Source: Escherichia coli
Lineage (GTDB): Bacteria; Pseudomonadota; Gammaproteobacteria; Enterobacterales; Enterobacteriaceae
Direction: 5' to 3' (one strand)
Length of the DNA stretch: 64,000 nt
Assembly: GCF_045037415.1 (NCBI RefSeq)
Contig: NZ_CP173438.1
In this document: positions 15,605-50,705 of the stretch, piece after piece
Numbering within the stretch: position 1 is the first letter of the stretch
Layout of the letters: the number at the start of each line of letters is the position of its first letter
The notes under the pieces: model-generated
The model's database searches: none
Told to the model about the DNA's origin: nothing
What the model saw: the letters and a program-made list of their open reading frames with translations, nothing else
Made by a program: the position numbers and the translations under genes

Positions 15605-15619
15605 TTACCTTAAAGGTAT
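15605..15619. promoter_or_regulatory. Imperfect copy of prophage palindromic motif (TTACC-TTAAA-GGTAT) upstream of int
   Basis: One mismatch to TTACC-N5-GGTAA; 43 bp upstream of int start. Confidence 0.4.
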
Positions 15620-15661
15620 ACTCTCATACCGTCATGAAAATGGTTTCTATACGGGTGAATT

Positions 15662-16918
15662 GTGCTTACCGATACAAAATTAAAAAACCTCAAGCCGCAG
15701 GACAAACTGTACAAGGTCTCCGATCGTGACGGGCTGTATGTAGCTGTGCTTACGTCAGGCACGGTCTCGTTTCGCTATGACTACCGTATCAACGGTCGCC
15801 GCGAAACACTGGTAATCGGGCAGTATGGGCGTGACGGTATCAGCCTGGCAGAAGCGCGAGAAGAACTGATTGCTGCAAAGAAGCTGCTTAAAGCAGGCCA
15901 GTCACCGGCTGCGGCTAAACGTGACGGTATTAAAAAGATTCGTGGTGCCGAGACGTTTGCGGTACATACCGACAGTTATATGAAACACGTCATCCTGGCT
16001 GACAGTACCCGCGCAATGAAGCAGGCGGTGATCGACCGTGACATACTTCCGGTTCTTGGCAACAAAATGATGGCTGAAATTACCACATCAATGGTTCGTG
16101 ATTTGTGTGACCGGATTGTCGAACGCGGTGGTCGGGCAACAGCAGTACAGGCCAGGGAGATCATCAGCAGCGTATACCGTCACGCCAATGACCGTGGTCA
16201 TGGTTTGTTTAATCCTGCGGCTGACATTAAACCTTCGTCTATCGCCATATTTAAACCACGAGAGCGAACACTGACACCAGAAGAAATTGGCCTGTTCTTC
16301 CGCACGCTGGATGCCATTGGTGCTATGGGCACTATGAAAATGGCTTTAAAGCTGGTGCTTATCACCATGGTTCGTAAGGGAGAATTCACCAATGCAACGT
16401 GGGATGAAATAGATTTTAAAAAATGGACATGGACAATTCCTTCAGACCGCATGAAGGGAAGTCGGGCGCACGTTATTTACCTGCCTAAACAGGCACAGGA
16501 TATATTAGTCGGGTTGCAGATGTGCGCTGGTGGAAGTGAATATCTGGTTCCTGGTCGTTACAATTTCCGGAAGCCATTATCTAATGCCGCGCTGAACTCT
16601 CTGATCGACAGAACGGTGAAAATAATAAATGAAGATGGTGAGCATATTCAGGATTTTACTGTACATGATATGCGCCGTACAGCCAGTACATTGTTGCATG
16701 AGGCTGGTTATCCTTCAGACTGGATTGAAAAGGCTCTGGCACACGAGCAGAAAGGTGTGCGCGCCGTATATAACAAAGCGGAATACGCCAGACAGCGCGC
16801 CTACATGTTGCAGCAGTGGGCCGATATGATTGATTCCTGGATTAACGGGGAGCATACGGATCTGATTCCGTTCTCCCCGTCGAAGTTTGAGAAGTGGATG
16901 GAAGACAGTAATAAATAA
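15662..16918 (+). CDS. int: Tyrosine integrase (P4-type N-terminal arm-binding domain)
   Basis: GTG start; MLTDTKLKNLKPQDKLYKVSDRDGLYVAV.. typical of P4-like integrases; C-terminal catalytic region with HxxR and terminal Tyr; adjacent to attL. Confidence 0.9.
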   Translation: MLTDTKLKNLKPQDKLYKVSDRDGLYVAVLTSGTVSFRYDYRINGRRETLVIGQYGRDGISLAEAREELIAAKKLLKAGQSPAAAKRDGIKKIRGAETFAVHTDSYMKHVILADSTRAMKQAVIDRDILPVLGNKMMAEITTSMVRDLCDRIVERGGRATAVQAREIISSVYRHANDRGHGLFNPAADIKPSSIAIFKPRERTLTPEEIGLFFRTLDAIGAMGTMKMALKLVLITMVRKGEFTNATWDEIDFKKWTWTIPSDRMKGSRAHVIYLPKQAQDILVGLQMCAGGSEYLVPGRYNFRKPLSNAALNSLIDRTVKIINEDGEHIQDFTVHDMRRTASTLLHEAGYPSDWIEKALAHEQKGVRAVYNKAEYARQRAYMLQQWADMIDSWINGEHTDLIPFSPSKFEKWMEDSNK

Positions 16919-16920
16919 TT

Positions 16921-17580
16921 CTATCCTTCCTGGACTTTGGTAAGCGTCAGATTTCCGCAGAACACTGCGCCGGTGTCGATGTACATTTGGTTTGCATACA
17001 CCAGTGGGTGATGTGCTGGCGTATGACCGAAGATGAACAAATCGGCACCGGTTATCTCCGAGACAATACCGTCCTGCGCGTCGCTAACCCGCTCACGATT
17101 CCATATCACCATTTCTTCCGGTACTGGCTTATCGAATGCGTATTCGTTGTGCGGGTAGTCTGCGTGGCAGATGACGACCTTCTTATTGCCGGTAACCAGT
17201 TCGATAATCATCGGGAGGTTGGTAACCTTTGGCAGAAGGTATTTGAGTTGCACATCCTGCTCAGAATCAAGTTGGTGCCACCATCCACCGCCGTTTGACA
17301 TCCAATGTCCGAAACTTCCGCCGTTGACCAGTGCATCCAGCATCATCTGCTCATGGTTGCCACGAACAGCTCGGAACCACGGCATAGTAATCAAATCCAG
17401 GCATTCGACGTTTTCAGCGCCGCGGTCAACAAGGTCACCAACGGAAATAAGCAAATCGCGCGCCGGGTCGAATGAAACTTTGTCGAGTTCGTTCATCAGC
17501 AGCGTGTAGCACCCATGCAGATCGCCGACGACGAAGATATTGCACCAGTCAGCGCCATTGATGCGTTGATATAGGTTCAT
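16921..17580 (-). CDS. Ser/Thr protein phosphatase (lambda PPase / PrpA-like metallophosphatase)
   Basis: GDLHG, GDLVDRG and GNHE metallophosphatase motifs; start taken at MNLYQRING to avoid overlap with the upstream gene. Confidence 0.8.
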
Positions 17581-18239
17581 GCTGCACGCTCCCGCCCCTG
17601 GTTGTCTGTTGGTGACAGCGGAGCATTGCTGAATGCATTTGTTAATCCGCCGATATCCAACGCGTATCCAGGGTGTAGTTGCACTGCCGGGTCTTCGCAC
17701 TGATTACCCCAAACATCGAAGCCATGAGACGTCTGGCGGGCGAACAGTTCAATGCGAGAAACATCGCCTAATAATTGCACAAGTTTTTCACGAACGATAT
17801 CTGGCTTTCTTGAATGCTCAAGCCGCGGTGCGGTAAATGACTGAACGATCCCTGCATTAATGCGCGTAGGTAGTTTTCCCTTTACCGCAAACAGGCAATC
17901 TTCACTATTGGCGCGAGTCATGTGTCCCATACCCATAACCAGTTTATCTGGTTGTCGACTACCACATTTTATCCACGTGAAGCCCTTCATCGTCATCAGA
18001 CGGAATCCCCAGGCTTCAACAACTTTTAGTGCTTCGAGTGGTTGTGTTGGCACCCACCACATGGCCAACAGACAGTTTTCATCGGCCAAATCCCACACAG
18101 GAAGGCGGCAGATATCCAGCACACTCATAACCGGATATTTAAAACCGGCACCGCGATTACCATCTGCGGCTTTGTCCCGGTATACCCAGGGTGGATCTGC
18201 ATAGATTAGTGTGTATTTCTTAGTCATAAACCACCCCAC
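17577..18239 (-). CDS. DNA N6-adenine methyltransferase (MT-A70-like)
   Basis: DPPW motif (..[12 protein letters not shown]..) near the N-terminus; overlaps the phosphatase start by 4 nt. Confidence 0.75.
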
Positions 18240-18486
18240 AACATCCTATGCCGCTATAGTCGCCACGGCGAAGGCCGTTACCTTTTGTGATACATTGGTC
18301 CCTGCGAACCGCGATCCTTGCACGTTCAACATCACCAGAAGCAACATCCATACACTGAAGCCAAAGGTGAGCGGCAATGCGGAATTGCCCTTTTTTCTCT
18401 CTTTCAATCGCGCGTTTTTCGATCTCTATCGCCGCAGGAGTAACGGCGACAATCTTTGACGGACTGCGCATTGAAACCTTATTCAT
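18220..18486 (-). CDS. Small hypothetical prophage protein (possibly ANR-type regulator)
   Basis: ORF only; start uncertain (M at 18519, 18486 or 18471). Confidence 0.3.
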   Translation of the reverse strand: MNKVSMRSPSKIVAVTPAAIEIEKRAIEREKKGQFRIAAHLWLQCMDVASGDVERARIAVRRDQCITKGNGLRRGDYSGIGCCGVVYD

Positions 18487-18628
18487 GTGATATTTTTCAA
18501 GTCGGCTTAACTTTCTCACTTAATCCAACCCTCTCTGAAAATTAATGCCAGCAGATAAAGCCATGCTGAAACAGAGGCCAGGAATAAGTACCATCCTGAC
18601 CATTTGCTCCAGTGCCTTAGCAGCGCAC

Positions 18629-18877
18629 TCATGCAGCGTTGCTCACGGGACGATATACACGTTGCTGAACAGGAGGCTTTTTACCCTGGAACTCTGCCGG
18701 GCTTGCTGCCTGACGTTCATCAAGCCAACGCTCAACTTCATCACGGTTCCATGCGCAGCGTTTATCGGTGATATACCAGCGTTTAGGAAATTCCCCTGCG
18801 CGCTCCATACGGTCGATAGTGCTCCATGACAGTGGCACCACCGCCAGGAGTTCTTTCTTACCTAATGCACCTTTCAT
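18629..18877 (-). CDS. AlpA-family phage regulatory protein / excisionase-like HTH
   Basis: 82 aa; ..LSWSTIDRMERAGEFPKRWYITDKRCAWNRDEVERWL.. resembles AlpA/Xis-type winged helix; located in the int-proximal early operon. Confidence 0.6.
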   Translation of the reverse strand: MKGALGKKELLAVVPLSWSTIDRMERAGEFPKRWYITDKRCAWNRDEVERWLDERQAASPAEFQGKKPPVQQRVYRPVSNAA

Positions 18878-18926
18878 GAATACCTCTCTTGGTTGCAGTG
18901 CGGCGCACGTGGCGCCGCGGTGGTGG

Positions 18927-19868
18927 TTACATAGATGTTTCGTTTAATTCTTCCCGACGAACGCTGTAAACGTCGGTTGCTTTTGCCAGCAGTTCGTCAT
19001 CATCTGAAAGTTTTTGTGCAATGTATTTGTAAGCCTTATCCAGTTCGGAGACAGTGCTGTAATTCATCGCTGCGCTGGTAAAGGCCATCAGCATTTCTTC
19101 TGGATCACGGCTGTCCGATTTACGCGTTTGCTCATCAGGCTTTTTCGCTGGTTTAGCGTTGATCAGACTGTTCATTCCCGCAGCAGTGGTCGTTTGCGGA
19201 GTAATGTCTCGCTCAACGCGCGGTGCCGTTTCCTGTAATTCGTCTGGGGTGTAGACGCCCATGATTACGTCAGGACAGTGCAGGCGAGACCAGCGTTTTG
19301 TCGCAAGGTATGCGAGTTGTTGTTTCGGATCACTGGCCCAAAGTGTGGAGTTTCTTACCTGTGCTTGAGACAGCATTAACTCAAGCACTCGAGGTTGATC
19401 CTCGCCCTTCATGGTTGCCCATACGCGAACACCGCAGCCTTCTTCGTCTTTTAGAGTCCAGCCTGGTGCGATATATGGATTGCCGTTTTTGGATGTTTTC
19501 TCAACAAACTTACCGATCACGCGTTCCCACGGCCCGAACCACTCGTAGTTGATGCGATCTTTTGTTGGCGACATCGTTGAGATAACTGCGTTTACTAATT
19601 GGGCTTCATAACCTAGCGTGCCGTTCACAACATGGGTTTTCTGAGCCACGGCAAACGGGTTCATTCCCCACTGCGCAGCCTGCATTGCCACGGCCATGCA
19701 ATCAGCTGGTTTCCCGGCGAGGTGCGCCGGTACCGTTACGCGGCTTTGCGCCATTACCTCGGCGAATTTCATCAGTTGGTTCAAGCCGTCTGGGCTGAAA
19801 ATAGTTGCAGCAGTTCCAGCGATTGCTGTGTCTACTGGTGCGTTGATGTTTGCGATGTCGTTGCTCAT
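18927..19868 (-). CDS. RecT-family single-strand annealing recombinase
   Basis: RecT-like sequence; start at MSNDIANI overlapping the stop of the upstream exonuclease gene. Confidence 0.75.
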   Translation of the reverse strand: MSNDIANINAPVDTAIAGTAATIFSPDGLNQLMKFAEVMAQSRVTVPAHLAGKPADCMAVAMQAAQWGMNPFAVAQKTHVVNGTLGYEAQLVNAVISTMSPTKDRINYEWFGPWERVIGKFVEKTSKNGNPYIAPGWTLKDEEGCGVRVWATMKGEDQPRVLELMLSQAQVRNSTLWASDPKQQLAYLATKRWSRLHCPDVIMGVYTPDELQETAPRVERDITPQTTTAAGMNSLINAKPAKKPDEQTRKSDSRDPEEMLMAFTSAAMNYSTVSELDKAYKYIAQKLSDDDELLAKATDVYSVRREELNETSM

Positions 19869-20686
19869 ATGTACATATCCTGTTTGCGTGCCCACTCAGG
19901 GCGTTTAATGATTTCCACACCGCCCCATTCATCATTGATGCGGCATTCGTGATAGGTATTCAGATCCCGGCGGAACAGAGCGTGCCCGGCATCGACATCC
20001 TGCGCATCCAGCTCGAACACGCGTACCGGATACCGACCACAATCAATGCTTTCGCTCACGGCAAGAAAGAAAAAACCATGCGGCTGACCAGTAACCCTCA
20101 TTGCGCCTTCGCGGTACATTGCGTCCTGCACGTGGTAGCGGAATTCCTCGATGTGGCGTGCAAAACGGTCCATATCTGCAACCTTTTTCACGTCGACGAT
20201 CACGTTGTGCTCGTTCAGCCATTTGTCTGGACGAATTCGGCACAACTCCCCCGTCTCTTCATCGTTCCAGTACATTGATGCTTCGCAGTAACCAGGTGCT
20301 TCCAGCATCCAGCGTGCCGCCGGGTGAGCCATTGCGCTATCACGCATCAGCTCCAGTTTCCGCCACTGCTCGGCATCAAGTACCGTAATCCCCATATCCG
20401 CCACATCACGAAGAAATTCCTCTTCGTCAGCTTTACCTTGTTTCGTCCGACGATCGAATTTCGGTGAAACAATGAAGCGTTTGTCGAACTCTCCAGGCTC
20501 CAGAAGCAGACAGTGCAATGCGGTTCCCATATCCAGTGCAGACTTTTTCTCTTCGTCTTCTGGTGCTGCCTGAACCCATTTAAGAAGCGCCGGATTCTTG
20601 GCAACCATGTCCAGTTGCGACTTACTCACGCCGTCACCGGCGTGGTAGTCTTCGTTGCTGATGTCGAAATAAATTCCCGGTTTCAT
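19865..20686 (-). CDS. PD-(D/E)XK exonuclease (phage recombination exonuclease, YqaJ/RecE-like)
   Basis: 273 aa immediately upstream of RecT in the same operon; conserved D..E.K-type nuclease signature region (..VIVDVKKV..). Confidence 0.6.
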   Translation of the reverse strand: MKPGIYFDISNEDYHAGDGVSKSQLDMVAKNPALLKWVQAAPEDEEKKSALDMGTALHCLLLEPGEFDKRFIVSPKFDRRTKQGKADEEEFLRDVADMGITVLDAEQWRKLELMRDSAMAHPAARWMLEAPGYCEASMYWNDEETGELCRIRPDKWLNEHNVIVDVKKVADMDRFARHIEEFRYHVQDAMYREGAMRVTGQPHGFFFLAVSESIDCGRYPVRVFELDAQDVDAGHALFRRDLNTYHECRINDEWGGVEIIKRPEWARKQDMYI

Positions 20687-20982
20687 GCCGCGTCCCTCTG
20701 CCCATCAAGCTGATCAGCCAGATCCCAGCGGGCGATAATTGCCATTGCCTCGCGCCGGTAGGCATCCATTAGTTCTTCGAACTCAGGGCTGTCTTTAGCG
20801 GCCTCCAGTACTTCCTGGCGAACGCCTTTAACTGTTACAACGTCGAAAGTTGATGCCAGTTGATGAAGCCGGATACTCTCAATCAGTTCAACTTGTCGGT
20901 CATATAGCTGTTCTGACAGACGGTAGTCCTTGTCGAATGCCAGCATGATTTTTTGAAGATTTTTCTGCTGATTAACGTTCAT
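20683..20982 (-). CDS. Hypothetical early-left protein
   Basis: ORF MNVNQQKNLQKIMLAF..; tightly coupled to flanking genes. Confidence 0.4.
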   Translation of the reverse strand: MNVNQQKNLQKIMLAFDKDYRLSEQLYDRQVELIESIRLHQLASTFDVVTVKGVRQEVLEAAKDSPEFEELMDAYRREAMAIIARWDLADQLDGQRDAA

Positions 20983-20984
20983 TA

Positions 20985-21137
20985 TCAGCCCTCCCATATC
21001 TCGTTATCGTTGGCCACATCGCGAGCTTCTTTGCTGACGAAAGCCCACTTAATGCCTTCCTGTAAGGTGCGGAACTTCCAGCTCATGAATCCGCATGCAG
21101 TAACGCAGTACCAACCGTTGATGATTTTCCACTGCAT
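20985..21137 (-). CDS. Small hypothetical protein (50 aa), first gene of the leftward early operon
   Basis: Translated by hand: MQWKIINGWYCVTACGFMSWKFRTLQEGIKWAFVSKEARDVANDNEIWEG; SD gaggt 9 nt upstream; below ORF-track size cutoff. Confidence 0.4.
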   Translation of the reverse strand: MQWKIINGWYCVTACGFMSWKFRTLQEGIKWAFVSKEARDVANDNEIWEG

Positions 21138-21156
21138 AACTTGTTACCTCGGTCTG

Positions 21157-21171
21157 TTACCGTTGAGGTAA
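21157..21171. promoter_or_regulatory. Palindromic operator-like motif TTACC-GTTGA-GGTAA at the leftward early promoter
   Basis: Perfect copy; abuts a -10-like element of a minus-strand promoter whose -35 TTGACA is at 21194-21199. Confidence 0.6.
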
Positions 21172-21218
21172 TAATTATGCGTATATGGTTTGATGTCAAT
21201 AGATATGAGTTAAAAAAA

Positions 21219-21233
21219 TTACCCGTTAGGTAA
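21219..21233. promoter_or_regulatory. Palindromic operator-like motif TTACC-CGTTA-GGTAA
   Basis: Perfect copy 62 bp from the copy at 21157; paired arrangement. Confidence 0.6.
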
Positions 21234-21244
21234 TCGAATAGGCA

Positions 21245-21270
21245 ATAAAAAAGCCGCCATAAGGCGGCTT
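21245..21270 (-). terminator. Rho-independent terminator after repressor gene
   Basis: On minus strand aagccgcc-ttat-ggcggctt followed by TTTTTT. Confidence 0.6.
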
Positions 21271-21290
21271 ACTTACTGAAAAATATGGTT

Positions 21291-21875
21291 TTATTGTTTG
21301 TTTTTTTCGTTCTGGTTGATGACAAATTCAATGTAACTTTCGATCTTTGCTTTCTCGGTTTCGGGTAACAATGCGTAGCGTGAGCGGTCATAGTTGATAG
21401 TCGCAGGGTCGTGCGGGTGAATCAGTAGTTCATATCCGTGACGCCCGAATGCGGATGCAACATTCTCCAGGGTGGAAATGGAAACGCTGACCTCATTGTT
21501 TAACAGGCGGCTGATTGTCACCTGGGCGACGCCGGATGCGCGGTGAAGTTTTCCCTGAGTTGAAAGGTCGCGGCTTTCACTCATCCAGCGTTCCAGGTTG
21601 TGAGCTGCCAGCTGACCAATGTCGCTTGGGCCGACAGGCTGAAAACCTTCCTGAGAAAGCGAGCGATCGATATCAAGCCAGTTACGGGGTTTATTGGCGG
21701 CAGCTTCAATTTTTCGCGCAACCTGGTCGCCGATAACCTTCTTGCCAAGAGCCCAGCGGTTTACCAGATTTGCCTGAGTTCCAAGTTTTTCTGCCATCCG
21801 CGTCTGAACACCATTGAATTCACGGTCGATCAAGTCGTTGAGATTTTGCCTGCGGACGTCCTGGATACTTTTCAT
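21291..21875 (-). CDS. Prophage repressor-like regulator with two HTH modules and no peptidase S24 domain
   Basis: 194 aa; two HTH-like segments (..TRMAEKLGTQANLVNRW.. and ..ASGVAQVTISRLLNNE..); divergent from the Cro-like gene; no Ser/Lys autocleavage domain. Confidence 0.6.
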   Translation of the reverse strand: MKSIQDVRRQNLNDLIDREFNGVQTRMAEKLGTQANLVNRWALGKKVIGDQVARKIEAAANKPRNWLDIDRSLSQEGFQPVGPSDIGQLAAHNLERWMSESRDLSTQGKLHRASGVAQVTISRLLNNEVSVSISTLENVASAFGRHGYELLIHPHDPATINYDRSRYALLPETEKAKIESYIEFVINQNEKNKQ

Positions 21876-21930
21876 TTTCTGGAAAATCGCCTCATATATG
21901 AATCAGTAGATGATTCAATTTAAAGCAATA

Positions 21931-21945
21931 TTACCCAACAGGTAA
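21931..21945. promoter_or_regulatory. Palindromic operator-like motif TTACC-CAACA-GGTAA in the repressor/cro intergenic region
   Basis: Perfect copy. Confidence 0.6.
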
Positions 21946-21951
21946 ATGCAC

Positions 21952-21990
21952 CCCATAGGTAACTATCCTTGATTTTTGTTACCTTATGGG
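21952..21990. promoter_or_regulatory. Second inverted repeat in the immunity region (cccataggtaac-N14-gttaccttatggg) overlapping the putative rightward promoter -35
   Basis: Half-sites GGTAAC/GTTACC in outward orientation; candidate rightward promoter -35 TTGTTA 21976-21981 and -10 TATTAT 21999-22004. Confidence 0.45.
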
Positions 21991-22029
21991 TGAATATTTA
22001 TTATCTGAAATAAATATCAGGCAATAGCT

Positions 22030-22260
22030 ATGAGCGATAACGGACATTTCGATTTCAAAAAGCACTGGCTTGCACTTACTCCGGATGAGCGTGAAGCCTT
22101 CGCACAGGAAGCCGGAACGACGAGTCACTATATCCAGACTCACTTAACAGGTAAGCGCAAAATGCCAGGTAAGGTATTGATGAATGGGCTTTTTAAAGCA
22201 TGTAAAACAAGACAATGGCTGCGCTCAAAAGCGGAACTGGCATACTTCTTCTACTCATGA
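22030..22260 (+). CDS. Cro/CII-like small HTH regulator
   Basis: 76 aa, HTH-like ..EAGTTSHYIQTHLTGKRKMP..; divergent from repressor. Confidence 0.5.
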   Translation: MSDNGHFDFKKHWLALTPDEREAFAQEAGTTSHYIQTHLTGKRKMPGKVLMNGLFKACKTRQWLRSKAELAYFFYS

Positions 22261-22282
22261 TATCTGGCAACAACCCTCTGTA

Positions 22283-22304
22283 GACCGCCATCCGGCGGTC
22301 TTTT
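22283..22304 (+). terminator. Rho-independent terminator after cro-like gene (tR1-like)
   Basis: gaccgcc-atcc-ggcggtc followed by TTTT. Confidence 0.55.
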
Positions 22305-22315
22305 CATATCTATTC

Positions 22316-22330
22316 GTACCTCAAAGGTAA
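22316..22330. promoter_or_regulatory. Imperfect palindromic motif GTACC-TCAAA-GGTAA
   Basis: One mismatch to TTACC-N5-GGTAA; just downstream of the tR1-like terminator. Confidence 0.4.
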
Positions 22331-22410
22331 TAAAAAACCAAATCTGGTTGATCTTTTTTTTGTGTCAGCACAAAATAACCGTAATCCCAATACTAATAAC
22401 AGGGCTTACC

Positions 22411-22611: not shown

Positions 22612-22626
22612 TAGCGGAGATTAATC

Positions 22627-24261: not shown

Positions 24262-24276
24262 TTACCTGTTAGGTAA
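24262..24276. promoter_or_regulatory. Palindromic operator-like motif TTACC-TGTTA-GGTAA
   Basis: Perfect copy, upstream partner of the site at 24324. Confidence 0.6.
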
Positions 24277-24296
24277 TAAAATTTTCTAAAATCTAT

Positions 24297-24324
24297 TGAT
24301 TTCGTGTCTTATGTGGTTTTTAAT
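24297..24324 (+). promoter_or_regulatory. Candidate sigma70 promoter (TTGATT-N16-TTTAAT) for the DUF1064/HNH operon
   Basis: -35 24297-24302, -10 24319-24324; the -10 abuts the palindromic motif at 24324-24338. Confidence 0.4.
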
Positions 24325-24338
24325 TACCTCAGAGGTAA
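24324..24338. promoter_or_regulatory. Palindromic operator-like motif TTACC-TCAGA-GGTAA overlapping the promoter -10/+1
   Basis: Perfect copy 4 nt upstream of the ATG at 24342. Confidence 0.6.
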
Positions 24339-24695: not shown

Positions 24696-25300
24696 GCGAG
24701 AAGCCCAATGCTGCGGGATTGATTGTATCCGGTGATAAAAACCCGAATTGGAAGGGTGGGAAAATCGAAAAGGTTTGCTCCGTATGTGGCAGGCAATATC
24801 AGGTTAAGCGAGCCAACTCATCTTCAAGGTTCTGCTCACTTCAGTGTGTAGGAATTTCACAGCGAGGCAAGACGGTAAATCGGGAACTAAAGCGAGTATT
24901 AAAAATATGCTGCGTATGCGGATCTTCGTTCTCCGTTTTCTTGAGTCATGAGAAGCGTCATAAATGCTGCTCGAAACAGTGTTCCAACATAATGCGTTCT
25001 TCTCTGATGAAGGGGGAAGGAAATCCAAACTGGTCTGGTGGATTATCGAGATTGCCGTATCCGTGGGATTTCCGAGAAACGAGCAAGAGGGTTATTGAGC
25101 GAGATGGTTTTACTTGTCAGAACCCAGGTTGTGATGGAACAGACAAAAGGCTAACAACTCATCACATCAATTACGACAAGCAAGATTGTCGTCAGGAGAA
25201 CCTTATTTGCCTTTGTTCGAGCTGTAACTCGAAGGCTAATTTCGGTCGGCATAAGTGGCAAAAGTTTTATGAATCACTGATGAAAAATAGATCGGCATGA
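24692..25300 (+). CDS. HNH endonuclease
   Basis: C-terminal HNH signature (..TTHHINYDKQDCRQENLICLCSSCNSK..); multiple CxxC pairs; start overlaps previous stop. Confidence 0.75.
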   Translation: MSEKPNAAGLIVSGDKNPNWKGGKIEKVCSVCGRQYQVKRANSSSRFCSLQCVGISQRGKTVNRELKRVLKICCVCGSSFSVFLSHEKRHKCCSKQCSNIMRSSLMKGEGNPNWSGGLSRLPYPWDFRETSKRVIERDGFTCQNPGCDGTDKRLTTHHINYDKQDCRQENLICLCSSCNSKANFGRHKWQKFYESLMKNRSA

Positions 25301-27918: not shown

Positions 27919-28040
27919 TGAACAAGTGCAACGCTCTGCTTTATGCCATGGTGATTGGTTTCGGCCTGGCTGCTGGTATCCGGGTTTATATTACCTGGGA
28001 GTCATTAATCAATCTGGCGTGGAGTGCGATTCGTGGCTAA
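27918..28040 (+). CDS. Small hydrophobic membrane protein (40 aa)
   Basis: SD aggagg upstream; MNKCNALLYAMVIGFGLAAGIRVYITWESLINLAWSAIRG. Confidence 0.4.
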   Translation: MNKCNALLYAMVIGFGLAAGIRVYITWESLINLAWSAIRG

Positions 28041-28371
28041 ATCCCCCGCAGAACGCAAAGCCGCGCAGCGCGCTCGGCAGTCCGCCGCCGGTGAGCGCAA
28101 AATTGAACTGGTGCTGGATAAGCAGGAGCAGGAAATGCTGGCGCGGAACTGCGCCGCCCGGCGCCCTGGTCGCGATCCCTATGAAATGGCCGAGTACATC
28201 GCGCTGCTGATCCGCCAGGATGATGCACGTGTGCGCGGGCGTATAAAATCGATCAGCAGAAAACGTTGCGGTAAGTGCGGCGAGAGAGTTCCAGTTAATT
28301 CATGCCCGTGTAATGGTGACTCGCAATGCTGGGTGACTAAAGGCTGGCATGAAACGAAATTAATAGTGTGA
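28024..28371 (+). CDS. Hypothetical protein with C-terminal Cys-rich zinc-ribbon-like motif
   Basis: ..RKRCGKCGERVPVNSCPCNGDSQCW..; immediately upstream of the packaging genes. Confidence 0.4.
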   Translation: MRFVAKSPAERKAAQRARQSAAGERKIELVLDKQEQEMLARNCAARRPGRDPYEMAEYIALLIRQDDARVRGRIKSISRKRCGKCGERVPVNSCPCNGDSQCWVTKGWHETKLIV

Positions 28372-28456
28372 CATGTCACGAGTAGATTATGCATGATGAA
28401 TTTGACGGTTTTGGATACTGCCGCCAACTATGGCGGCTTTATTTTGCATGGTACTA

Positions 28457-28471
28457 TTACCACAACGGTAA
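28457..28471. promoter_or_regulatory. Palindromic operator-like motif TTACC-ACAAC-GGTAA upstream of terminase small subunit
   Basis: Perfect copy 18 nt upstream of the TerS ATG at 28489. Confidence 0.55.
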
Positions 28472-28488
28472 CTATTACCACGGTGGTT

Positions 28489-29085
28489 ATGATGCCTGCT
28501 GAACCTAAAACCTATAAACGCAAATCAACGCAATTTAAGCCACTAACAGCAATGCAGGAGGCTTATTGCCAGTCATACATCAAAACGCCTGAAAACCAGA
28601 CTCAGGCAGCGATTAACGCAGGATTCTCTCCAAATACAGCGGCAGTTAAAGCCAGTGTCATGATGCGCGATGAACGCATTCAAAAACGGATTGCCGAGTT
28701 GATGGAGGAGCGCAACAAACGAATGCGCGTCAGTGCTGATTACGTTCTCATGCGCCTGGTGGAGATCGACCAGATGGACGTGATCGACATCCTCAACGAC
28801 GATGGGAGCCTTAAACCAATCCGTGAGTGGCCGAAAATCTGGCGCACTACGCTTAGTGGCTTTGATCTGTCATCGACCATCATGAACATGAACGAGGATT
28901 CGATAGAGACAATCCTCAAAAAAATTAAATGGCCTGACAAGGTGAAGAACCTCGAACTGATTGGTAAGCACGTCGACGTCAACGCATTCAAAGAACGCCT
29001 GGATGTTAATGTGAATGTGACAATTGCTGATCGCATAGCAGCAGCCAGGAAGCGACTCAAAGAACGTCAGGATGGTAATCAGTGA
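28489..29085 (+). CDS. Terminase small subunit
   Basis: MMPAEPKTYKRKSTQFKPLTAMQEAYCQSYIKTPENQTQAAINAGFS.. typical TerS N-terminus; directly precedes TerL. Confidence 0.75.
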   Translation: MMPAEPKTYKRKSTQFKPLTAMQEAYCQSYIKTPENQTQAAINAGFSPNTAAVKASVMMRDERIQKRIAELMEERNKRMRVSADYVLMRLVEIDQMDVIDILNDDGSLKPIREWPKIWRTTLSGFDLSSTIMNMNEDSIETILKKIKWPDKVKNLELIGKHVDVNAFKERLDVNVNVTIADRIAAARKRLKERQDGNQ

Positions 29086-30614: not shown

Positions 30615-31022
30615 TCATCGGCTGGCTGTTTGTGACATGTCACTGTGTTGTTGCTCGCTTAACTTCTGCTTCAGCAAGTAACCTTCAAGCATCCAGATTT
30701 TGTTTACAGCATTCTGCCGGGCAATCTTCCGACCAATTTCTGCATCAAAATTTTCCGGACTTGCACAGGCACTCTCTCCGGTGACAGTGAAGCCATTCTT
30801 CAGCACCAGTACGCAGAAAGTGAGAAGGTGCAGAGCATCAGGGGTGGCTTCGACATAAGGCTCCGGATTATAAATAAGGTCATCTTCTTTAGCCTGGTGA
30901 TCACCCTGCGCAGCAGTGAAAAAATGCTCACTGCAAATGAGGCCTTCAATTTTCTCAGGTGTTACACGCGGTGCCGTTTTGCCTTTCTCAACGATTTCTT
31001 TTTCGATTTGCTGGTCGTTCAT
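30615..31022 (-). CDS. Gp49-like phage protein, accessory gene in opposite orientation
   Basis: 135 aa; family assignment from memory only; inserted between terL and portal on the opposite strand. Confidence 0.45.
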   Translation of the reverse strand: MNDQQIEKEIVEKGKTAPRVTPEKIEGLICSEHFFTAAQGDHQAKEDDLIYNPEPYVEATPDALHLLTFCVLVLKNGFTVTGESACASPENFDAEIGRKIARQNAVNKIWMLEGYLLKQKLSEQQHSDMSQTASR

Positions 31023-31219
31023 AATCTCACCTTAAAAAAATGCCCGGCGAACCGGGCGAACTGGAAGCAATGAGTTATGCCTTCCGTGGCTGTACTGGTT
31101 TACAGCATGAAGTCATCGCAATGGCGTCCTGCTGTAAAAAGGGCGGTGATAGTCCTTCAAGGGAAACCATCACCGCCAAGCCCCTGGAACTTCTGGCATC
31201 ACGGTCCTTAGGCGTGATT

Positions 31220-31296
31220 CTGGCGTGGCATGCAGGATTCGAACCTGCGACCAACCGCTTAGAAGGCGGTTGCTCTGTCCAACTGAGCTAATGCCA
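31220..31296 (-). tRNA. tRNA-Arg (anticodon UCU), phage-encoded
   Basis: Folded by hand: acceptor GTGGCAT/ATGCCAC, D-arm GCTC..GAGC, anticodon stem ACCGC/GCGGT with loop CTTCTAA (anticodon TCT), T-arm GCAGG-TTCGAAT-CCTGC, discriminator G and encoded CCA. Confidence 0.85.
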
Positions 31297-31619
31297 CAAC
31301 GCTGAGAGCACTTAGCCTGTTAAGGCGCCACACTTTGTCGCGGCTCCATAAATGCTCTCATCGTTGTACCCTCGTCTCTTCCGAGGCGTCACACCGAATC
31401 GCCGGGATGGTGAATCCCCGTGCGCGGAATAAAACCGCTCGACTTGCACATTCCGGCTACCTGGTTCGTTTGCCCGAGCAAGGGAGGGTGCCCCTTAAAC
31501 GTATCCAGACCGCTATCGGCGCATGTGCCATACGCCGTACTGCTCAAAATAAAAGCTCACTCCACCTGTTCAATTTAACGACAATCCAGTCAGGTTAGTA
31601 ACCGGAATGAACTCTTTGG

Positions 31620-31634
31620 TTACCTGAAAGGTAA
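31620..31634. promoter_or_regulatory. Palindromic operator-like motif TTACC-TGAAA-GGTAA upstream of the head gene cluster
   Basis: Perfect copy about 90 bp upstream of ORF 31725. Confidence 0.55.
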
Positions 31635-31724
31635 TAATTTGTGCGTTAAATGTCAACTATCTACGATAAATAAATCATATGTGGTTAAATTGGTAATAAT
31701 TTAATTGCGTACGGAGTCATTGAT

Positions 31725-31945: not shown

Positions 31946-33625
31946 ATGGCGGAAACAACTAAAGAGCGATTGAACAAACAGTTCGCACAACTTGAAAGCG
32001 AGCGTCAGTCGTTCGAGCCGCACTGGCGCGAGTTGAGTGATTACATCAACCCGCGTGGTTCCCGCTTTCTGACTTCTGAGGCCAACCGTAACGATCGGCG
32101 CAATACACGCATTATTGATTCGACCGGGACTATGGCGGCGCGCACTCTCGCCAGCGGCATGATGTCAGGCATCACAAGCCCCGCGCGTCCGTGGTTTCGC
32201 CTGGCTACGCCAGATCCTGAAATGATGGATTATGGCCCTGTTAAGTTGTGGCTTGAGGCGGTGCAGAACCGCATGAACGATATGTTCAATAAGTCGAATC
32301 TCTATCAGTCTCTGCCGCAGTTATACGGAAGCCTCGGCACATACAGCACTGGTGCAATGGCAGTGCTGGAGGATGACGAGGACATCATTCGCACAATGCC
32401 ATTCCCGATAGGCAGTTACTACCTGGCTAACTCACCTCGTGGCAGTGTGGACACCTGTTTTCGCAAGTTCTCTATGACTGTTCGTCAGCTTGTTCAGGAG
32501 TTCGGGCTAAATAACGTCAGCGAATCCGTAAAAAGCATGTGGGAAAGCGGCACCTACGAGAAGTGGATTGACGTGATGCATTCGGTTTACCCGAACATTG
32601 ACCGCGATACATCGAAGCTGGATAGCAAGAACAAGCCATTCAAATCGGTTTATTACGAGGTTGGTGGCGATAACGACAAGTTGTTGCGTGAGTCCGGATT
32701 TGATGAGTTTCCAATTATGGCTCCGCGCTGGGAAGTTAACGGCGAAGATGTTTATGGATCATCATGCCCGGGTATGCTGGCGCTTGGACCTGTTAAGGCA
32801 TTGCAGCTTCTCCAGAAGCGCAAGTCGCAGTTGATTGATAAAGCCACCAATCCGCCGATGGTTGCTCCGACTTCCCTCAAGAATCAGCGCGCCTCCCTTC
32901 TTCCTGGCGACATCACGTATATCGATCAGATTACTGGTCAGGATGGCTTCAGGCCTGCTTATCTGGTTAACCCCAGTACAGCAGATTTGGTAGCAGACAT
33001 TCAGGACACTCGTCAAATCATTAACAGCGCCTACTTTGTCGATCTGTTCATGATGTTGCAGAACATCAATACCCGCTCGATGCCTGTTGAAGCGGTGATC
33101 GAAATGAAAGAAGAAAAACTTCTGATGTTGGGGCCGGTTCTGGAGCGCCTGAACGACGAATGTCTTAATCCTCTCATTGACCGCGCTTTCTCGATGATGG
33201 TGCGTAAAAACATGCTGCCGCCACCGCCAGACGTGATGGAAGGTATGCCCCTGAAGGTCGAATACATTTCCGTCATGGCTCAGGCGCAGAAGTCTATCGG
33301 CCTGTCCAGTCTGGCGTCCACGGTTAACTTCATTGGTCAACTTGCGCAAGCGAAACCAGAAGCTCTCGACAAACTCAACGTTGATCAGGCGATCGATGCA
33401 TTCGCTGATATGTCCGGAGTGTCTCCAACCGTCATTGTTCCGCAGGAACAGGTTGAGCAGGCTCGCCAGCAACGGGCACAGCAGCAACAGCAACAACAAA
33501 TGATGGCGGTGGGGATGGCGGCGGCACAGGGTGCCAAGACGCTAAGCGAAGCTAAAACTTCGGATCCGAGTGTTTTGACAGCTATGGCGAATGCAGTTAG
33601 TGGTCAGGGTGGGCAATCACAATGA
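31946..33625 (+). CDS. Portal protein (T7-type head-to-tail connector family)
   Basis: 559 aa; size, position after terminase and Q/A/M-rich C-terminal tail resemble podovirus gp8-type portals. Confidence 0.8.
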   Translation: MAETTKERLNKQFAQLESERQSFEPHWRELSDYINPRGSRFLTSEANRNDRRNTRIIDSTGTMAARTLASGMMSGITSPARPWFRLATPDPEMMDYGPVKLWLEAVQNRMNDMFNKSNLYQSLPQLYGSLGTYSTGAMAVLEDDEDIIRTMPFPIGSYYLANSPRGSVDTCFRKFSMTVRQLVQEFGLNNVSESVKSMWESGTYEKWIDVMHSVYPNIDRDTSKLDSKNKPFKSVYYEVGGDNDKLLRESGFDEFPIMAPRWEVNGEDVYGSSCPGMLALGPVKALQLLQKRKSQLIDKATNPPMVAPTSLKNQRASLLPGDITYIDQITGQDGFRPAYLVNPSTADLVADIQDTRQIINSAYFVDLFMMLQNINTRSMPVEAVIEMKEEKLLMLGPVLERLNDECLNPLIDRAFSMMVRKNMLPPPPDVMEGMPLKVEYISVMAQAQKSIGLSSLASTVNFIGQLAQAKPEALDKLNVDQAIDAFADMSGVSPTVIVPQEQVEQARQQRAQQQQQQQMMAVGMAAAQGAKTLSEAKTSDPSVLTAMANAVSGQGGQSQ

Positions 33626-35668: not shown

Positions 35669-36106
35669 ATGATCACCGACAAACTGTTGATGTTCTCCGA
35701 AGCTCAGGCGGTTACGAATACCGCGGCTTCTACTGACGTAATCGATCTCGGTCCAATTGACGGAAAACGTCGTGATATCGGCGTGGGTTATCCGCTTGAG
35801 TTTTGGGTGCTGGTTAACGAAGCCGCCACGGCAAGTGGTGAGGAAACTGTAAACATCCAGTTGCAGACGAGTGAGAATAACAGCTCATGGTCCACTATTT
35901 ATGATAGTGGCGCACTGGCAAAGGATACCCTGACAGCAGGTAAACGAGTTGTTTCTGCAAAGGTGCCTGCCGGTGTTCAGCGATATCTGCGTGTTAACTA
36001 CTCCGTCGCAACTGGCCCACTAACGGCTGGCGAATTCACTGCTGGTATCAGTCTTGATGTTGATGCCAATACGCCGTATCCGATCCGCTCAAAAGTAACT
36101 GGTTAA
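35669..36106 (+). CDS. Hypothetical virion protein (possibly capsid decoration)
   Basis: ORF with RBS after capsid gene. Confidence 0.4.
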   Translation: MITDKLLMFSEAQAVTNTAASTDVIDLGPIDGKRRDIGVGYPLEFWVLVNEAATASGEETVNIQLQTSENNSSWSTIYDSGALAKDTLTAGKRVVSAKVPAGVQRYLRVNYSVATGPLTAGEFTAGISLDVDANTPYPIRSKVTG

Positions 36107-45230: not shown

Positions 45231-45235
45231 ATTAA

Positions 45236-47710: not shown

Positions 47711-47721
47711 AAGGAGATATG

Positions 47722-47844
47722 ATGGTTCAAATAACTTTTATTGTACTAATATGTGCAGCGTTTTTATGCTATTCATACATTTTGATAAAAATGGGTTTCA
47801 ATTGGAATCTCTGTTGCGTGCAGCGGCATGGTTCGGCTTTGTAG
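47722..47844 (+). CDS. Small hydrophobic peptide (40 aa), uncertain
   Basis: SD aaggag 6 nt upstream of ATG 47722; MVQITFIVLICAAFLCYSYILIKMGFNWNLCCVQRHGSAL. The ORF-track alternative 47694-47882 is in another frame. Confidence 0.3.
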   Translation: MVQITFIVLICAAFLCYSYILIKMGFNWNLCCVQRHGSAL

Positions 47845-47929
47845 TATTAGGAATTGTATTGTTCGGAAGAATAATAAAATAACTAGTTAATTTGTGGATT
47901 GGTGCTGTTTTTCCATGATAGGGGTAATT

Positions 47930-48310
47930 ATGAGAAAAGTATTTTTGATTTTTGGATTTATGCTTCTCGTTGGATGCCAGTCAGCTGCACAGTTTGAAAG
48001 AAATATGCTTACGTGGCGCGGGCAGAGTATAGACGCAATGGTTCAGCAGTGGGGGTATCCTCAGGGAGAGCTTACATCTCCAGATGGAAACAGAGTGTAT
48101 GTTTACTCAAGCTCTGGTAGTTATAACGTACCACAAACCACAACGTATAATACTACGTCTAATCTAATTGGTAATACTATATATTCAAACACATACGCAA
48201 CAACTGATGGCGGTTATACACTCCATTTCAGTTGCTCTGTTTACGTTGAGTTTGGTGCTGATAAGATTATTAAAAATGTTACATGGCGCGGTAATAATTG
48301 CGTTGCGTGA
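47930..48310 (+). CDS. Lipoprotein (accessory gene)
   Basis: SD aggggtaa; lipoprotein signal peptide MRKVFLIFGFMLLVGC with lipobox LVGC; Ser/Thr/Tyr/Asn-rich mature part. Confidence 0.6.
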   Translation: MRKVFLIFGFMLLVGCQSAAQFERNMLTWRGQSIDAMVQQWGYPQGELTSPDGNRVYVYSSSGSYNVPQTTTYNTTSNLIGNTIYSNTYATTDGGYTLHFSCSVYVEFGADKIIKNVTWRGNNCVA

Positions 48311-48341
48311 CATGTCACAGGCCGCTTTCGCGGCCTTGTTT

Positions 48342-48503
48342 TTAACGAATGCCACCGCCACCCGGGCGGGAATCCGCAGAACGCCCACCGCAGCGGGAGC
48401 CGTCAGCAGCAGTGTCGCTGTCGTGCTGACAACGACCGGCAAAGGCCTGAGTTGAAGCTACCAGAGACAACAAAACGAACAGTGCAGCAAATGCTTTTTT
48501 CAT
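48342..48503 (-). CDS. Small secreted peptide candidate (53 aa), low confidence
   Basis: MKKAFAALFVLLSLVASTQAFA signal-peptide-like start followed by a Gly/Arg/Asp-rich tail; lies in a short GC-rich segment. Confidence 0.25.
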   Translation of the reverse strand: MKKAFAALFVLLSLVASTQAFAGRCQHDSDTAADGSRCGGRSADSRPGGGGIR

Positions 48504-48574
48504 TGTGAAATTTCCATCTATAAGCCACCTCAATGTGGCGTCAATGAGTGTAGCACTGACTTTTGTTTCGTCCA

Positions 48575-48597
48575 CAAAAAAGCCCGCGCTGCGGGCT
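48575..48597 (-). terminator. Rho-independent terminator after the 210-aa unknown gene
   Basis: On minus strand agcccgc-agc-gcgggct followed by TTTTTT. Confidence 0.6.
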
Positions 48598-48601
48598 TCT
48601 A

Positions 48602-49234
48602 TTAATGCAGTTTATCTTTGCTTATAACCAGTAGTCTGTGGGTATGCACATCTTTATCACTGCCCCAACAGAAATCAGCCCACTGGCTATAGAAATCATC
48701 CCATGATGTCATGAAGCTAAGAGGTCTATCTTCTTCAGAGCCATCTGAAACGTATACATTATATCCTGGGGTGTTTATAGCCCAAGAAATCATTCTTTCC
48801 CAGAATCTTCTCCCATCGATTGTTTGTTGCTCATCAGATACAACGATCGCATATTGCTCTAGGAAGAACTGAAAAAAAATCTGAGGCAAACCATGAACAG
48901 CACGGTCATGAATAACATTAGGCGTACGCCATACCATGATCTGCGTACATGTTCTTTTGGCTTCGACGATATCTTCCCGAAAGATTAACTTAACCGCATA
49001 CACCGTTTCTGGAGTATCGCTGGTAGTAATCATTCTGTAATGATCGCCATTACAAGATTTTACAAGGCGATAACCATAAGGTGTTGTGAATCCCGGAAGA
49101 ACGAAATCAACCACACCTTTCGCTAAGTAGCTTTCGGTGTGACTAGTGTTCTTCTCAGACATGTTCAGTTTTCTATCGAAATCTGCTTCTGGGATAATGT
49201 ATGGCATCGCTTTTCTTGTTGTATTTGTTCTCAT
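48602..49234 (-). CDS. Hypothetical protein (210 aa) of unknown function in the accessory locus
   Basis: SD gggagga before ATG; own promoter region with palindromic motif and own terminator; no recognisable family. Confidence 0.5.
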   Translation of the reverse strand: MRTNTTRKAMPYIIPEADFDRKLNMSEKNTSHTESYLAKGVVDFVLPGFTTPYGYRLVKSCNGDHYRMITTSDTPETVYAVKLIFREDIVEAKRTCTQIMVWRTPNVIHDRAVHGLPQIFFQFFLEQYAIVVSDEQQTIDGRRFWERMISWAINTPGYNVYVSDGSEEDRPLSFMTSWDDFYSQWADFCWGSDKDVHTHRLLVISKDKLH

Positions 49235-49293
49235 TTCGTCCTCCCATGTTTGGCTACAGGACGCGTTTTGAAGGGAAGATTAAAAATGCTTTC

Positions 49294-49308
49294 TTACCCT
49301 TGAGGTAA
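49294..49308. promoter_or_regulatory. Palindromic operator-like motif TTACC-CTTGA-GGTAA
   Basis: Perfect copy 60 bp upstream of the 210-aa gene start. Confidence 0.55.
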
Positions 49309-49380
49309 TAGTACGCTATTCACCCCCAGTCTGCAATCTGTACAGAATTATTTAAAGGCACATCCCTGTGCCGCCGCCCG

Positions 49381-50037
49381 TCAGAAGAACCCTGCCTTGT
49401 CGTTGATGTACTCCGCGTGCGTCTGGATATCACGCAGGCATTTGCTCACACCAACGATGTAGCAGAACATGGTGGTCAGCTCCGCCGCCGCGCCCGATAC
49501 GTCGTGCCCGTCGTCCTGTAACTGGTTCAGCAGATTCATCAGCAGTGAGTTCTCCGTCAGGCCGAGAACACCAGACGGCGAGTGAATCAGGCTGCGGTAG
49601 CCGGGCTTCAGTGGGGCACTGTATTCTTTTTTGTCTTCCAGCTTGATCGCCTCCATAATGGCGGGCATGAAGCCTGACAAGACCTTCTCCACTTTTGTTT
49701 CTTGTTGTCTTAAACGTTTCTCGCATTCAATGAAGTAGCGTCGCACCTGGCGACCTTTTTCGTTACGCTCGACCATCGCCAGCTCTTTGGCTGTATCAAG
49801 GGTGAGGTGGTACTCTTTGCGGTTGTGGCCGCCTCTACCAGATGTTTGCTTTCCCAAATTGGAAAGCAAAATATAGTCTTGATTTTCAATGAATTCGTAT
49901 TCTGATATGCGATTTGTAATCCATGCTGCAAACACCTTTTTAACACCTAAAAAAGCGTGCAGATCGCGGGCATTACAAAGTAGGGCTGTTTCGTTAGATA
50001 TAGTGCCGTTGAATACGGGGATGAGTTGAGCGTTCAT
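49381..50037 (-). CDS. Antirepressor (AntA-like N-terminal domain plus KilAC-like C-terminal domain)
   Basis: N-terminus ..[36 protein letters not shown].. matches the AntA/AntB pattern as recalled; C-terminal about 80 aa homologous to the downstream 85-aa protein. Confidence 0.65.
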
Positions 50038-50310
50038 GATGGCGTCTCCACTTAGCGAATTACATCACCACCGCTGAGAACCAATCAGATGGTGGTGAAC
50101 TGAACGGAGTTGGTCTTACCGGCCTAAGTGGTACCGGCGTCCTTTCGGACCCCCATTCAGCCCACCATAATTCTGGCATGACTGTGCTATACGCATAAAA
50201 AAACCACGTCTGGCGTGGTATGCGCCACTTAGTAATCCGGGAGAACCAATCCCGGCACTGGATTTTGCCAGTGCCCGATTACTATGGCACAAGAGGAGTG
50301 CGATGTAAAT

Positions 50311-50325
50311 TTACCGCAAAGGTAA
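50311..50325. promoter_or_regulatory. Palindromic operator-like motif TTACC-GCAAA-GGTAA nested inside a larger palindrome
   Basis: Perfect copy flanked by ggagtgc (50294-50300) and gcactcc (50332-50338). Confidence 0.55.
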
Positions 50326-50356
50326 ATATAAGCACTCCATTTGGTAATTTCAAACC

Positions 50357-50614
50357 TTATCTGGTTTGTTTTCGTAATTGTTCGGCACAATAGTCGAGAT
50401 GTGTTTGCAGATCCTGCATAGACATCTGTGAGCTGGTGACGTAGTTAATCAGTGCAGTCAGTTCGGCAAGTGGGCCATCGACATTAAATCCATCCTTATC
50501 GAGATCCCGGAGTAATTTCATCAAGTGCGATCCCTCCACCAGTGACCTGACGCCTCCCGGCGTGTGAATCCTTTCGGTAAATCCGTCTTCCAGTGGATAG
50601 TGATACTGCTGCAT
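50357..50614 (-). CDS. Small antirepressor-like protein (KilAC-like domain only, 85 aa)
   Basis: MQQYHYPLEDGF..; about 45 percent identical to the C-terminal domain of the 218-aa antirepressor (shared ..IH(S/T)P.GV..L.E.S.LM.LL..L..DG..V.G..AELT..Y..DxQTH..Y); LexA box 22 bp upstream. Confidence 0.6.
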   Translation of the reverse strand: MQQYHYPLEDGFTERIHTPGGVRSLVEGSHLMKLLRDLDKDGFNVDGPLAELTALINYVTSSQMSMQDLQTHLDYCAEQLRKQTR

Positions 50615-50635
50615 CTTATCTTCTCCATGCAATAA

Positions 50636-50651
50636 CTGTATATTTATACAG
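50636..50651. promoter_or_regulatory. LexA (SOS) box CTGT-N8-ACAG
   Basis: aaCTGTATATTTATACAGta, near-perfect match to the E. coli LexA consensus; overlaps a TATAAA -10-like element of the minus-strand promoter. Confidence 0.75.
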
Positions 50652-50690
50652 TAGCAAATAATTTGTTTGCTATCCAGCACGTTTTGCAAA

Positions 50691-50705
50691 TTACCTGAAA
50701 GGTAA
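50691..50705. promoter_or_regulatory. Palindromic operator-like motif TTACC-TGAAA-GGTAA between antirepressor-like gene and tailspike
   Basis: Perfect copy in the divergent intergenic region. Confidence 0.55.

Follow-up and report, generated by a model that had tools for sequence, protein, structure and literature searches.

Palindromic sites, very probably operators of the lysogeny repressor Rep, accompany nearly every transcription unit of a phiV10-like prophage in Escherichia coli

In podophages of the epsilon15 and phiV10 type, literature and annotation describe the lysogeny repressor, Rep, as a tetrameric, palindrome-binding protein that is inactivated by the antirepressor Ant. For phage SPC32H, Rep has been described as having a DNA-binding domain at the N-terminus, a dimerisation domain in the middle and, at the C-terminus, a domain for tetramerisation and antirepressor binding (PMC9986798); secondary sources have it bind palindromic sites as a tetramer, with the DNA-binding domains paired across dimers (PMC9638917; PMC9986798). 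The mechanism by which Rep represses genes is called not extensively characterised (PMC9986798). In the related phage ZX5, overexpression of the repressor abolished free phage and lowered endolysin and holin transcripts by >99.9% (PMC9782041). Elsewhere, the C1 repressor of phage P1 has 22 operators dispersed over the genome, together with an immI operon composed of the C4 antisense RNA, icd and ant (PMC8546580), and the repressor of L5-type mycobacteriophages uses >20 operators and stoperators to silence the prophage beyond its immunity region (PMC9283540). Here we analyse a 15-bp palindrome, TTACC-N5-GGTAA, that recurs in a 64,000-nucleotide stretch of Escherichia coli DNA (contig NZ_CP173438.1, assembly GCF_045037415.1; henceforth the window). 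The sites are very probably operators of Rep in a phiV10-like prophage inserted at the 3' end of guaA.

The window contains ten perfect copies of the palindrome (at 21157, 21219, 21931, 24262, 24324, 28457, 31620, 49294, 50311 and 50691), each at the position given in an earlier note on this sequence, and every one of them lies inside a 40-kb prophage. Because the att core ATTGAGTGGGAATGATT, a sequence reported for phiV10, epsilon15 and ZX5 (PMC9782041), occurs at 15455 and again at 55459, the prophage spans 15455-55475, with the following ends:

15455..15471, plus strand: attL core ATTGAGTGGGAATGATT, at the 3' end of guaA
55459..55475, plus strand: attR core, marking the right-hand prophage end

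The element shares 97-98% identity with Escherichia phage phiV10 and close relatives of the genus Uetakevirus, whose type is Salmonella phage epsilon15. Its immunity region is carried by 561 of 5426 complete E. coli genomes (~10%), so the element is a common one.

The palindrome is real and highly non-random. No perfect site appeared across 100 dinucleotide-preserving shuffles, compared with the ten observed, and when one mismatch is allowed the window holds 18 matches where 1.1 are expected. For an empirical null, we counted every pattern of the form X5-N(0-11)-rc(X5) in the prophage, rc denoting the reverse complement. At a gap of 5, 966 of the 1024 patterns are absent, 55 occur once, two occur twice and TTACC occurs ten times, making it the top outlier; across gaps 0-11, TTACC and GGTAA are found paired at gap 5 only. 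The expectation in the earlier note that such a palindrome should be rare by chance is thereby borne out. One-mismatch copies in the prophage lie at 15605 and 22316, both of which had been named before and are real, and at 21979 and 28475; together with a two-mismatch copy at 21948, the latter two are weak sites added by the present analysis. In 124 kb of host DNA (the 24 kb of window flanks plus two 50-kb stretches, 100 kb in all, taken from an E. coli chromosome with the same prophage), the perfect palindrome is absent. One-mismatch copies do occur there at about chance level, with four in the window flanks, all within long open reading frames (ORFs), and two and four per 50 kb elsewhere. 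The proposed restriction to the prophage thus stands for perfect copies and not for one-mismatch copies. Pooling of 34 distinct sites yields the consensus (W)ATTACC-WWWWW-GGTAAT(W), a palindrome of 17-19 bp with A or T as the central base in every site. The sites are symmetric, unlike the asymmetric 17-bp operators of the P1 type or stoperators.

The motif is shared throughout the genus. Perfect copies number 8 in phiV10, 11 in epsilon15, 9 in Tyrion (compared by means of search and alignment tools only), 10 in SPC32H and 10 in Klebsiella phage Kp4865-1; in the last of these, the palindrome again comes out top in an unbiased scan, even though the structural genes are only ~65% identical at the DNA level. 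The copies are positionally orthologous across these relatives: the site at int, the pair at the leftward early promoter PL, two to three sites between rep and cro, the pair behind the replication genes, one or two sites ahead of terS, a single site ahead of the head genes and another where ant and the tailspike gene diverge. The relatives have a further operator ahead of the lysis cassette. In alignments of four regions, 98% of the half-site columns in orthologous operators are invariant, compared with 20% of spacer and 29% of flank columns; such half-site invariance is the signature of a protein-binding site read through two half-sites. Moreover, seven protein_bind features with the label 'repressor / lysogeny' are entered in the RefSeq record of epsilon15 (NC_004775.2), and each coincides with one palindrome:

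epsilon15 NC_004775.2, protein_bind: 12-27, 2931-2947, 19895-19911, 32479-32494, 32554-32570, 32616-32632 and 35906-35922

The window sites at terS, at the head genes, between ant and tailspike, at PL and at the post-replication promoter are orthologous to annotated ones. A search of full-text literature for statements on the motif or on epsilon15 or phiV10 operators returned nothing beyond the ZX5 paper, the primary epsilon15 and SPC32H papers lying outside the searched text. Since motif, distribution and repressor assignment are already in public annotation, and repressor and antirepressor have been characterised, the finding is already known.

Two candidate regulators are encoded divergently around the operators of the immunity region:

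21291..21875, minus strand: rep, the Rep repressor, 194 aa, with an N-terminal helix-turn-helix (HTH), a middle HTH-like dimerisation domain and a C-terminal domain for tetramerisation and Ant binding
22030..22260, plus strand: cro-like gene, 76 aa, PHROG family phrog_35 'transcriptional repressor'

The product of 21291-21875 aligns over its full length with SPC32H Rep (PDB 5D50, E 4e-42, residues 1-190). It is 100% identical to the repressors of phiV10 and vB_EcoP_ZX5, and 42% identical to SPC32H Rep. Rep proteins of the phiV10 and epsilon15 types share only ~43% identity, yet the N-terminal HTH segment, including N36-L-V-N-R-W41, is invariant. An unchanged NLVNRW recognition helix would fit the unchanged operator. 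The earlier note had proposed a single dimeric regulator, plausibly this protein. Homology to 5D50, the epsilon15 annotation and the ZX5 overexpression phenotype agree with the choice of regulator, whereas the dimer gives way to the tetramer that has been described for Rep; a tetramer, and not a simple dimer, fits the paired operators set out below. On our part, the assignment draws on motif statistics, positional orthology, Rep and Ant homology and promoter geometry.

Most copies of the palindrome overlap or adjoin core promoter elements or terminators of the early, integrase, terminase and accessory units:

15605..15619: O_int, a one-mismatch copy, TTACCTTAAAGGTAT; the same variant (ending GGTAT) is found in all 6 genomes
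21157..21171: O_L proximal, abutting the -10 of the leftward early promoter PL and spanning about -7 to +8
21219..21233: O_L distal, at about -62 and 62 bp from O_L proximal, right after the rep terminator and next to a conserved T-tract
21931..21945: O_R nearest rep, perfect
21948..21962: O_R middle, two mismatches, GCACCCCATAGGTAA; counterpart of the perfect middle sites of epsilon15 (33358) and SPC32H (34407)
21979..21993: O_R nearest cro, one mismatch, overlapping the -35 and spacer of the predicted promoter PR (TTGTTA-17-TATTAT)
22316..22330: one-mismatch site (GTACC...), just past the cro terminator and before the replication genes; present in phiV10 and Tyrion
24262..24276: distal post-replication operator, at about -62, just past a terminator
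24324..24338: proximal post-replication operator, spanning about -7 to +8 and separated by 62 bp from its distal partner
28457..28471: terS operator 1, abutting a conserved extended -10 (TGgTACTAT; TGnTAyTAT across genomes) directly after a terminator
28475..28489: terS operator 2, one mismatch, 18 bp downstream of the first and overlapping the terS ribosome-binding region
49294..49308: accessory operator, abutting a leftward -10-like TACTAT, before gene 48602-49234 (phrog_1349)
50311..50325: isrK/C4 operator, adjoining the -10 hexamer of TTGAAA-17-TATATT, a leftward promoter

In both PL (TTGACA-17-AATTAT) and the post-replication promoter (TTGATT-17-TTTAAT), the -10 hexamer and TTACC have one T in common, which ends the hexamer and begins TTACC, and the proximal operators cover about -7 to +8, in line with the overlap of -10 and +1 that the earlier note had pointed out at the leftward early promoter and at 24297-24324. 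The mismatch in O_int creates a -10-like TATACT (TATAAT in epsilon15) ~43 bp before int. Overall, an operator overlaps or abuts a -10 at about six promoters, namely those of int, PL, the post-replication unit, terS and two accessory leftward units; of 94 oriented operator ends, 17 adjoin a -10, compared with about 6% expected. A spacing of 60-70 bp, which had been put forward for pairs of sites, holds for two pairs, at exactly 62 bp, whereas the other groups are spaced by 17, 31 and 48 bp (rep-cro) or by 18 bp (terS). The 62-bp spacing of the PL and post-replication pairs is exact in five genomes, with 63 bp for one pair in Kp4865-1, and conservation between or near the paired operators extends to both promoter hexamers (-35 and -10) and to an A/T tract beside the distal site. 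The recurrent layout abutting the -10 and the genus-conserved 62-bp pairing are additions of this analysis, as are the late-promoter layout and the immI-like module described below.

The location of the sites in intergenic or promoter regions depends on gene starts. Sites 28457 and 28475 fall within the longest ORF call and within terS as annotated in phiV10 (NC_007804.2, CDS 41-715), and under longest ORF calls the claim of intergenic placement fails. With terS starting at ATG 28492, as in the epsilon15 and Tyrion annotations and consistent with a conserved ribosome-binding site, and with the start of ant corrected to ATG 50614 (minus strand), upstream of which lies operator 50691, these three sites are intergenic and the claim holds. 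The phiV10-style start of terS would put two operators and the tail of a terminator inside the gene (28393-28492). A reading of the terS pair as a roadblock only was considered and dropped, given that the conserved extended -10 TGnTAyTAT abuts the first site.

A different arrangement is found at promoters of late genes:

31620..31634: single operator upstream of the head/structural operon
31676..31724, plus strand: ~50-bp block CATATGTGGTTAAATTGGTAATAATTTAATTGCGTACGGAG, almost invariant in five genomes
50691..50705: ant/tailspike operator, between the divergent ant and tailspike genes
50737..50761, plus strand: conserved tailspike promoter block, TATGTGGTT-N5-GGTAATAGAAT, with -10-like TAGAAT
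24310-24318 (post-replication), 31678-31686 (head) and 50737-50745 (tailspike): TATGTGGTT/CCATATRTGG in the window
phiV10 24736-24749, epsilon15 24753, SPC32H 24831 and Kp4865-1 35811: the same late element in relatives

At the head and tailspike promoters and, in relatives, at the lysis promoter, one operator stands alone upstream of another conserved element, TATGTGGTT or CCATATRTGG, which stands in place of a -35 and whose phiV10 form is a perfect 14-bp palindrome, AACCATATATGGTT. This late element lies 39-51 bp downstream of the centre of the operator, and 5 nt beyond the element comes a Rep half-site; in the block 31676-31724, the GGTAA half-site is exactly 62 bp from operator 31620. The sequence ATGTGGTT occurs exactly three times in the window, each time at a promoter with the late element. 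With the lone operator ~40-50 bp ahead of the core element, repression of the head and tailspike promoters is not accounted for by simple occlusion. Rep might instead loop to the half-site in the core promoter or interfere with an activator or the alpha subunit of RNA polymerase, or another protein may act positively from the operator. Judging from its geometry and conservation, the late element may be the target of a late activator, for which the product of 28024-28371 (phrog_536) is a candidate; it matches no Pfam family and no recognisable DNA-binding family. A copy of TATATGGTT on the opposite strand in the PL spacer was also considered as a late element; epsilon15-type genomes do not share it, however, and it is treated as chance.

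Coding DNA adjoining the block 31676-31724 is just 65-83% identical in the same five genomes, and the conservation of the block exceeds what a promoter needs; part of the block may be a leader RNA element. A transfer RNA (tRNA) gene (31224-31297, minus strand; Rfam, 73 bits) stands between terL and the head genes, and SPC32H has a tRNA-Arg at the equivalent place.

Altogether, 12 of about 13 mapped transcription units carry at least one operator, so that the breadth claimed in the earlier note, nearly every transcription unit, is upheld, with the lysis-cassette promoter lacking a site. One exception is 30615-31022, a small leftward unit situated after terL and before the head genes, where a LexA-like box takes the place of an operator. 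This box, of LexA type, reads CTGTACTGGTTTACAG and lies at 31090-31105 (phiV10: 2722) upstream of the gene, which is similar to Sf6 gene 66 and may be an SOS-controlled accessory gene. The other exception, the lysis cassette, directly follows the tailspike gene here (53461-53550), with the promoter core TGGTTTATTGTGTATGATGG kept and the operator lost. In phiV10, epsilon15, SPC32H and Tyrion, O-antigen-modification genes intervene between tailspike and lysis; the lysis operator is missing here because these genes are absent from this prophage.

The antirepressor side of the switch occupies the region around operators 50311 and 50691:

50357..50614, minus strand: ant, small antirepressor, 85 aa, start ATG 50614; 88% identical to SPC32H Ant
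50636..50651: perfect LexA box CTGTATATTTATACAG, 22 bp upstream of the ant start
49381..50037, minus strand: second antirepressor, with a Bro-N/AntA N-terminus and a C-terminal domain 40% identical to SPC32H Ant
50088..50172, minus strand: C4 antisense RNA, Rfam RF01695, 61.2 bits (gathering score 45)
50197..50274, minus strand: isrK-like Hfq-binding small RNA, Rfam RF01394, 60.9 bits, above the gathering score

The LexA box of ant is conserved in epsilon15-type genomes and, as CTGT-N8-ACAG, is distinct from the palindrome. Downstream of the promoter at operator 50311 come isrK, C4 and then the Bro-N::Ant gene. By analogy, this module resembles P1/P7 immI, which in P1 is also governed by the main repressor, and would form a second antirepressor circuit beside the LexA-controlled ant.

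Taken together, these observations suggest how Rep could govern the prophage. Each half-site would be read by one N-terminal HTH domain of Rep, and a Rep tetramer, with its two pairs of DNA-binding domains, could hold two operators at once. Rep would occupy every site listed. Paired operators would be bound either side by side (17-18 bp apart, as between rep and cro and at terS) or across 62 bp with the promoter looped out, as at PL and the post-replication promoter. An operator on or abutting the -10 would block RNA polymerase at about six promoters, and at PR the operator would cover the -35 and spacer, whereas at the head and tailspike promoters, where it lies upstream of an activator-type core element, repression would be less direct. 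On induction, LexA-controlled Ant would pull Rep off the DNA without cleavage of Rep.

Several points weigh against an assignment to Rep, or to Rep only. The epsilon15 protein_bind features may be predictions; a 62-bp loop would be tight; at the head and tailspike promoters, and at the lysis promoter of relatives, a placement of the operator ~40-50 bp ahead of the core element suits an activator more than a repressor; and the Cro-like protein is more conserved than Rep, so that conservation alone does not assign the sites to Rep only. It is indeed possible, if on balance doubtful, that the sites are mainly or additionally targets of the 76-aa Cro-like protein (22030-22260), for early shut-off and perhaps as a help to late promoters in lytic growth. 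This protein is 76-100% identical across the genus where Rep proteins share only 43%, its HTH segment EAGTTSHYIQTHLTG does not vary, the PHROG family that it matches is one of transcriptional repressors, and rep and cro are separated by three operators, an arrangement known from lambdoid switches. Nevertheless, its DNA binding is putative and a Pfam search of it gave no match, while annotation and literature assign the sites to Rep. Binding by Cro instead of Rep conflicts with the invariant recognition helix of Rep, whereas binding by both is compatible with operators of Rep. Among the Rep-homologue phages in our collection, none combines a changed Rep DNA-binding domain with a changed motif, all of them keeping motif and recognition helix; with the Cro-like protein conserved as well, covariation cannot separate the two proteins. 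We also consider it unlikely, though worth stating, that Rep tetramers or octamers form micro-loops and perhaps bridge operators prophage-wide and that the same sites are reused by Cro or a late activator in lytic growth; invariant 62-bp pairs and single operators ~5-6 helical turns upstream of CCATATRTGG would point that way.

Quite improbable is a role of the late-promoter palindromes as upstream activator sites, bound from about -60 to -80 by a phage activator or by Rep or Cro acting positively. The head, tailspike and lysis promoters do lack a -35, and their single operators stand 39-51 bp upstream of CCATATRTGG/TATGTGGTT in about the same helical phase (50-53 or 62 bp to TGGTT), but this phasing comes from about four independent promoters, and the same sequence at +1 of at least five sigma70-type promoters occupies a repressor position; nor is there a known activator of this specificity, the candidate 28024-28371 being without a recognisable DNA-binding family. 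Hardly credible, finally, is that the palindromes act as RNA (in a hairpin, in processing or in termination) or bind a host factor. As RNA, the 19-mer would form a 7-bp hairpin of -5.5 to -6.2 kcal/mol, and several sites adjoin terminators. Such hairpins are modest, however; the half-sites are invariant without compensatory changes, no T-run follows the sites, and many of them, for example the distal ones at -62, precede the start of transcription, so the RNA reading was rejected. A host regulon was likewise rejected, as perfect sites are lacking from the 124 kb of host DNA, the one-mismatch copies in the flanks all fall in ORFs and the motif differs from the nearby LexA box.

As an array of Rep operators, the locus matches the epsilon15-like Rep/Ant switch of epsilon15, SPC32H, phiV10 and ZX5 in motif, relative positions and gene order. 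It differs from its relatives in the extra accessory operator 49294, in an ant/tailspike site that is perfect here and has one mismatch (TCACC) in phiV10, and in having no operator before the lysis cassette. With P1 it shares one repressor, scattered operators and an antirepressor operon that opens with a C4-type antisense RNA. By contrast, the P1 sites are 17-mers without symmetry (ATTGCTCTAATAAATTT) and C1 is not related to XRE-type HTH proteins, whereas here the sites are palindromes, Rep is of XRE type and the late promoters themselves carry sites; the likeness to the dispersed operators of C1 is functional only. The L5 sites are asymmetric 13-mers, bound by monomers, that block elongation in an orientation-dependent manner, and stoperators sit in short promoterless gaps between genes, oriented with transcription, whereas the sites of the prophage are symmetric and mostly on promoters, with most abutting the -10. 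Lambda CI and Cro offer a parallel in three adjacent palindromic operators between divergent repressor and cro genes, in SOS induction and in cooperative or looped binding, looping being a suggestion here; but lambda has operators only at OL and OR and its CI is cleaved with RecA, whereas here about 12 units carry operators and inactivation of Rep falls to an antirepressor under LexA control.

Upstream of guaA, the host flank contains an exceptionally long ORF of 2693 aa (2693-10774) whose AT skew is strong; it probably encodes a giant adhesin-type protein and is unrelated to the palindrome.

A true regulatory motif was thus correctly picked from raw sequence. The biology that it reflects, a dispersed-operator repressor relieved by a LexA-controlled antirepressor, is already in databases and literature, and the practical value is modest. 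The analysis offers concrete predictions for Rep, namely 62-bp looping and the late-promoter element. Since about one in ten complete E. coli genomes carries this immunity region, the operator map and promoter geometry could aid the reading of prophage induction, superinfection immunity and phiV10-based reporter phages.

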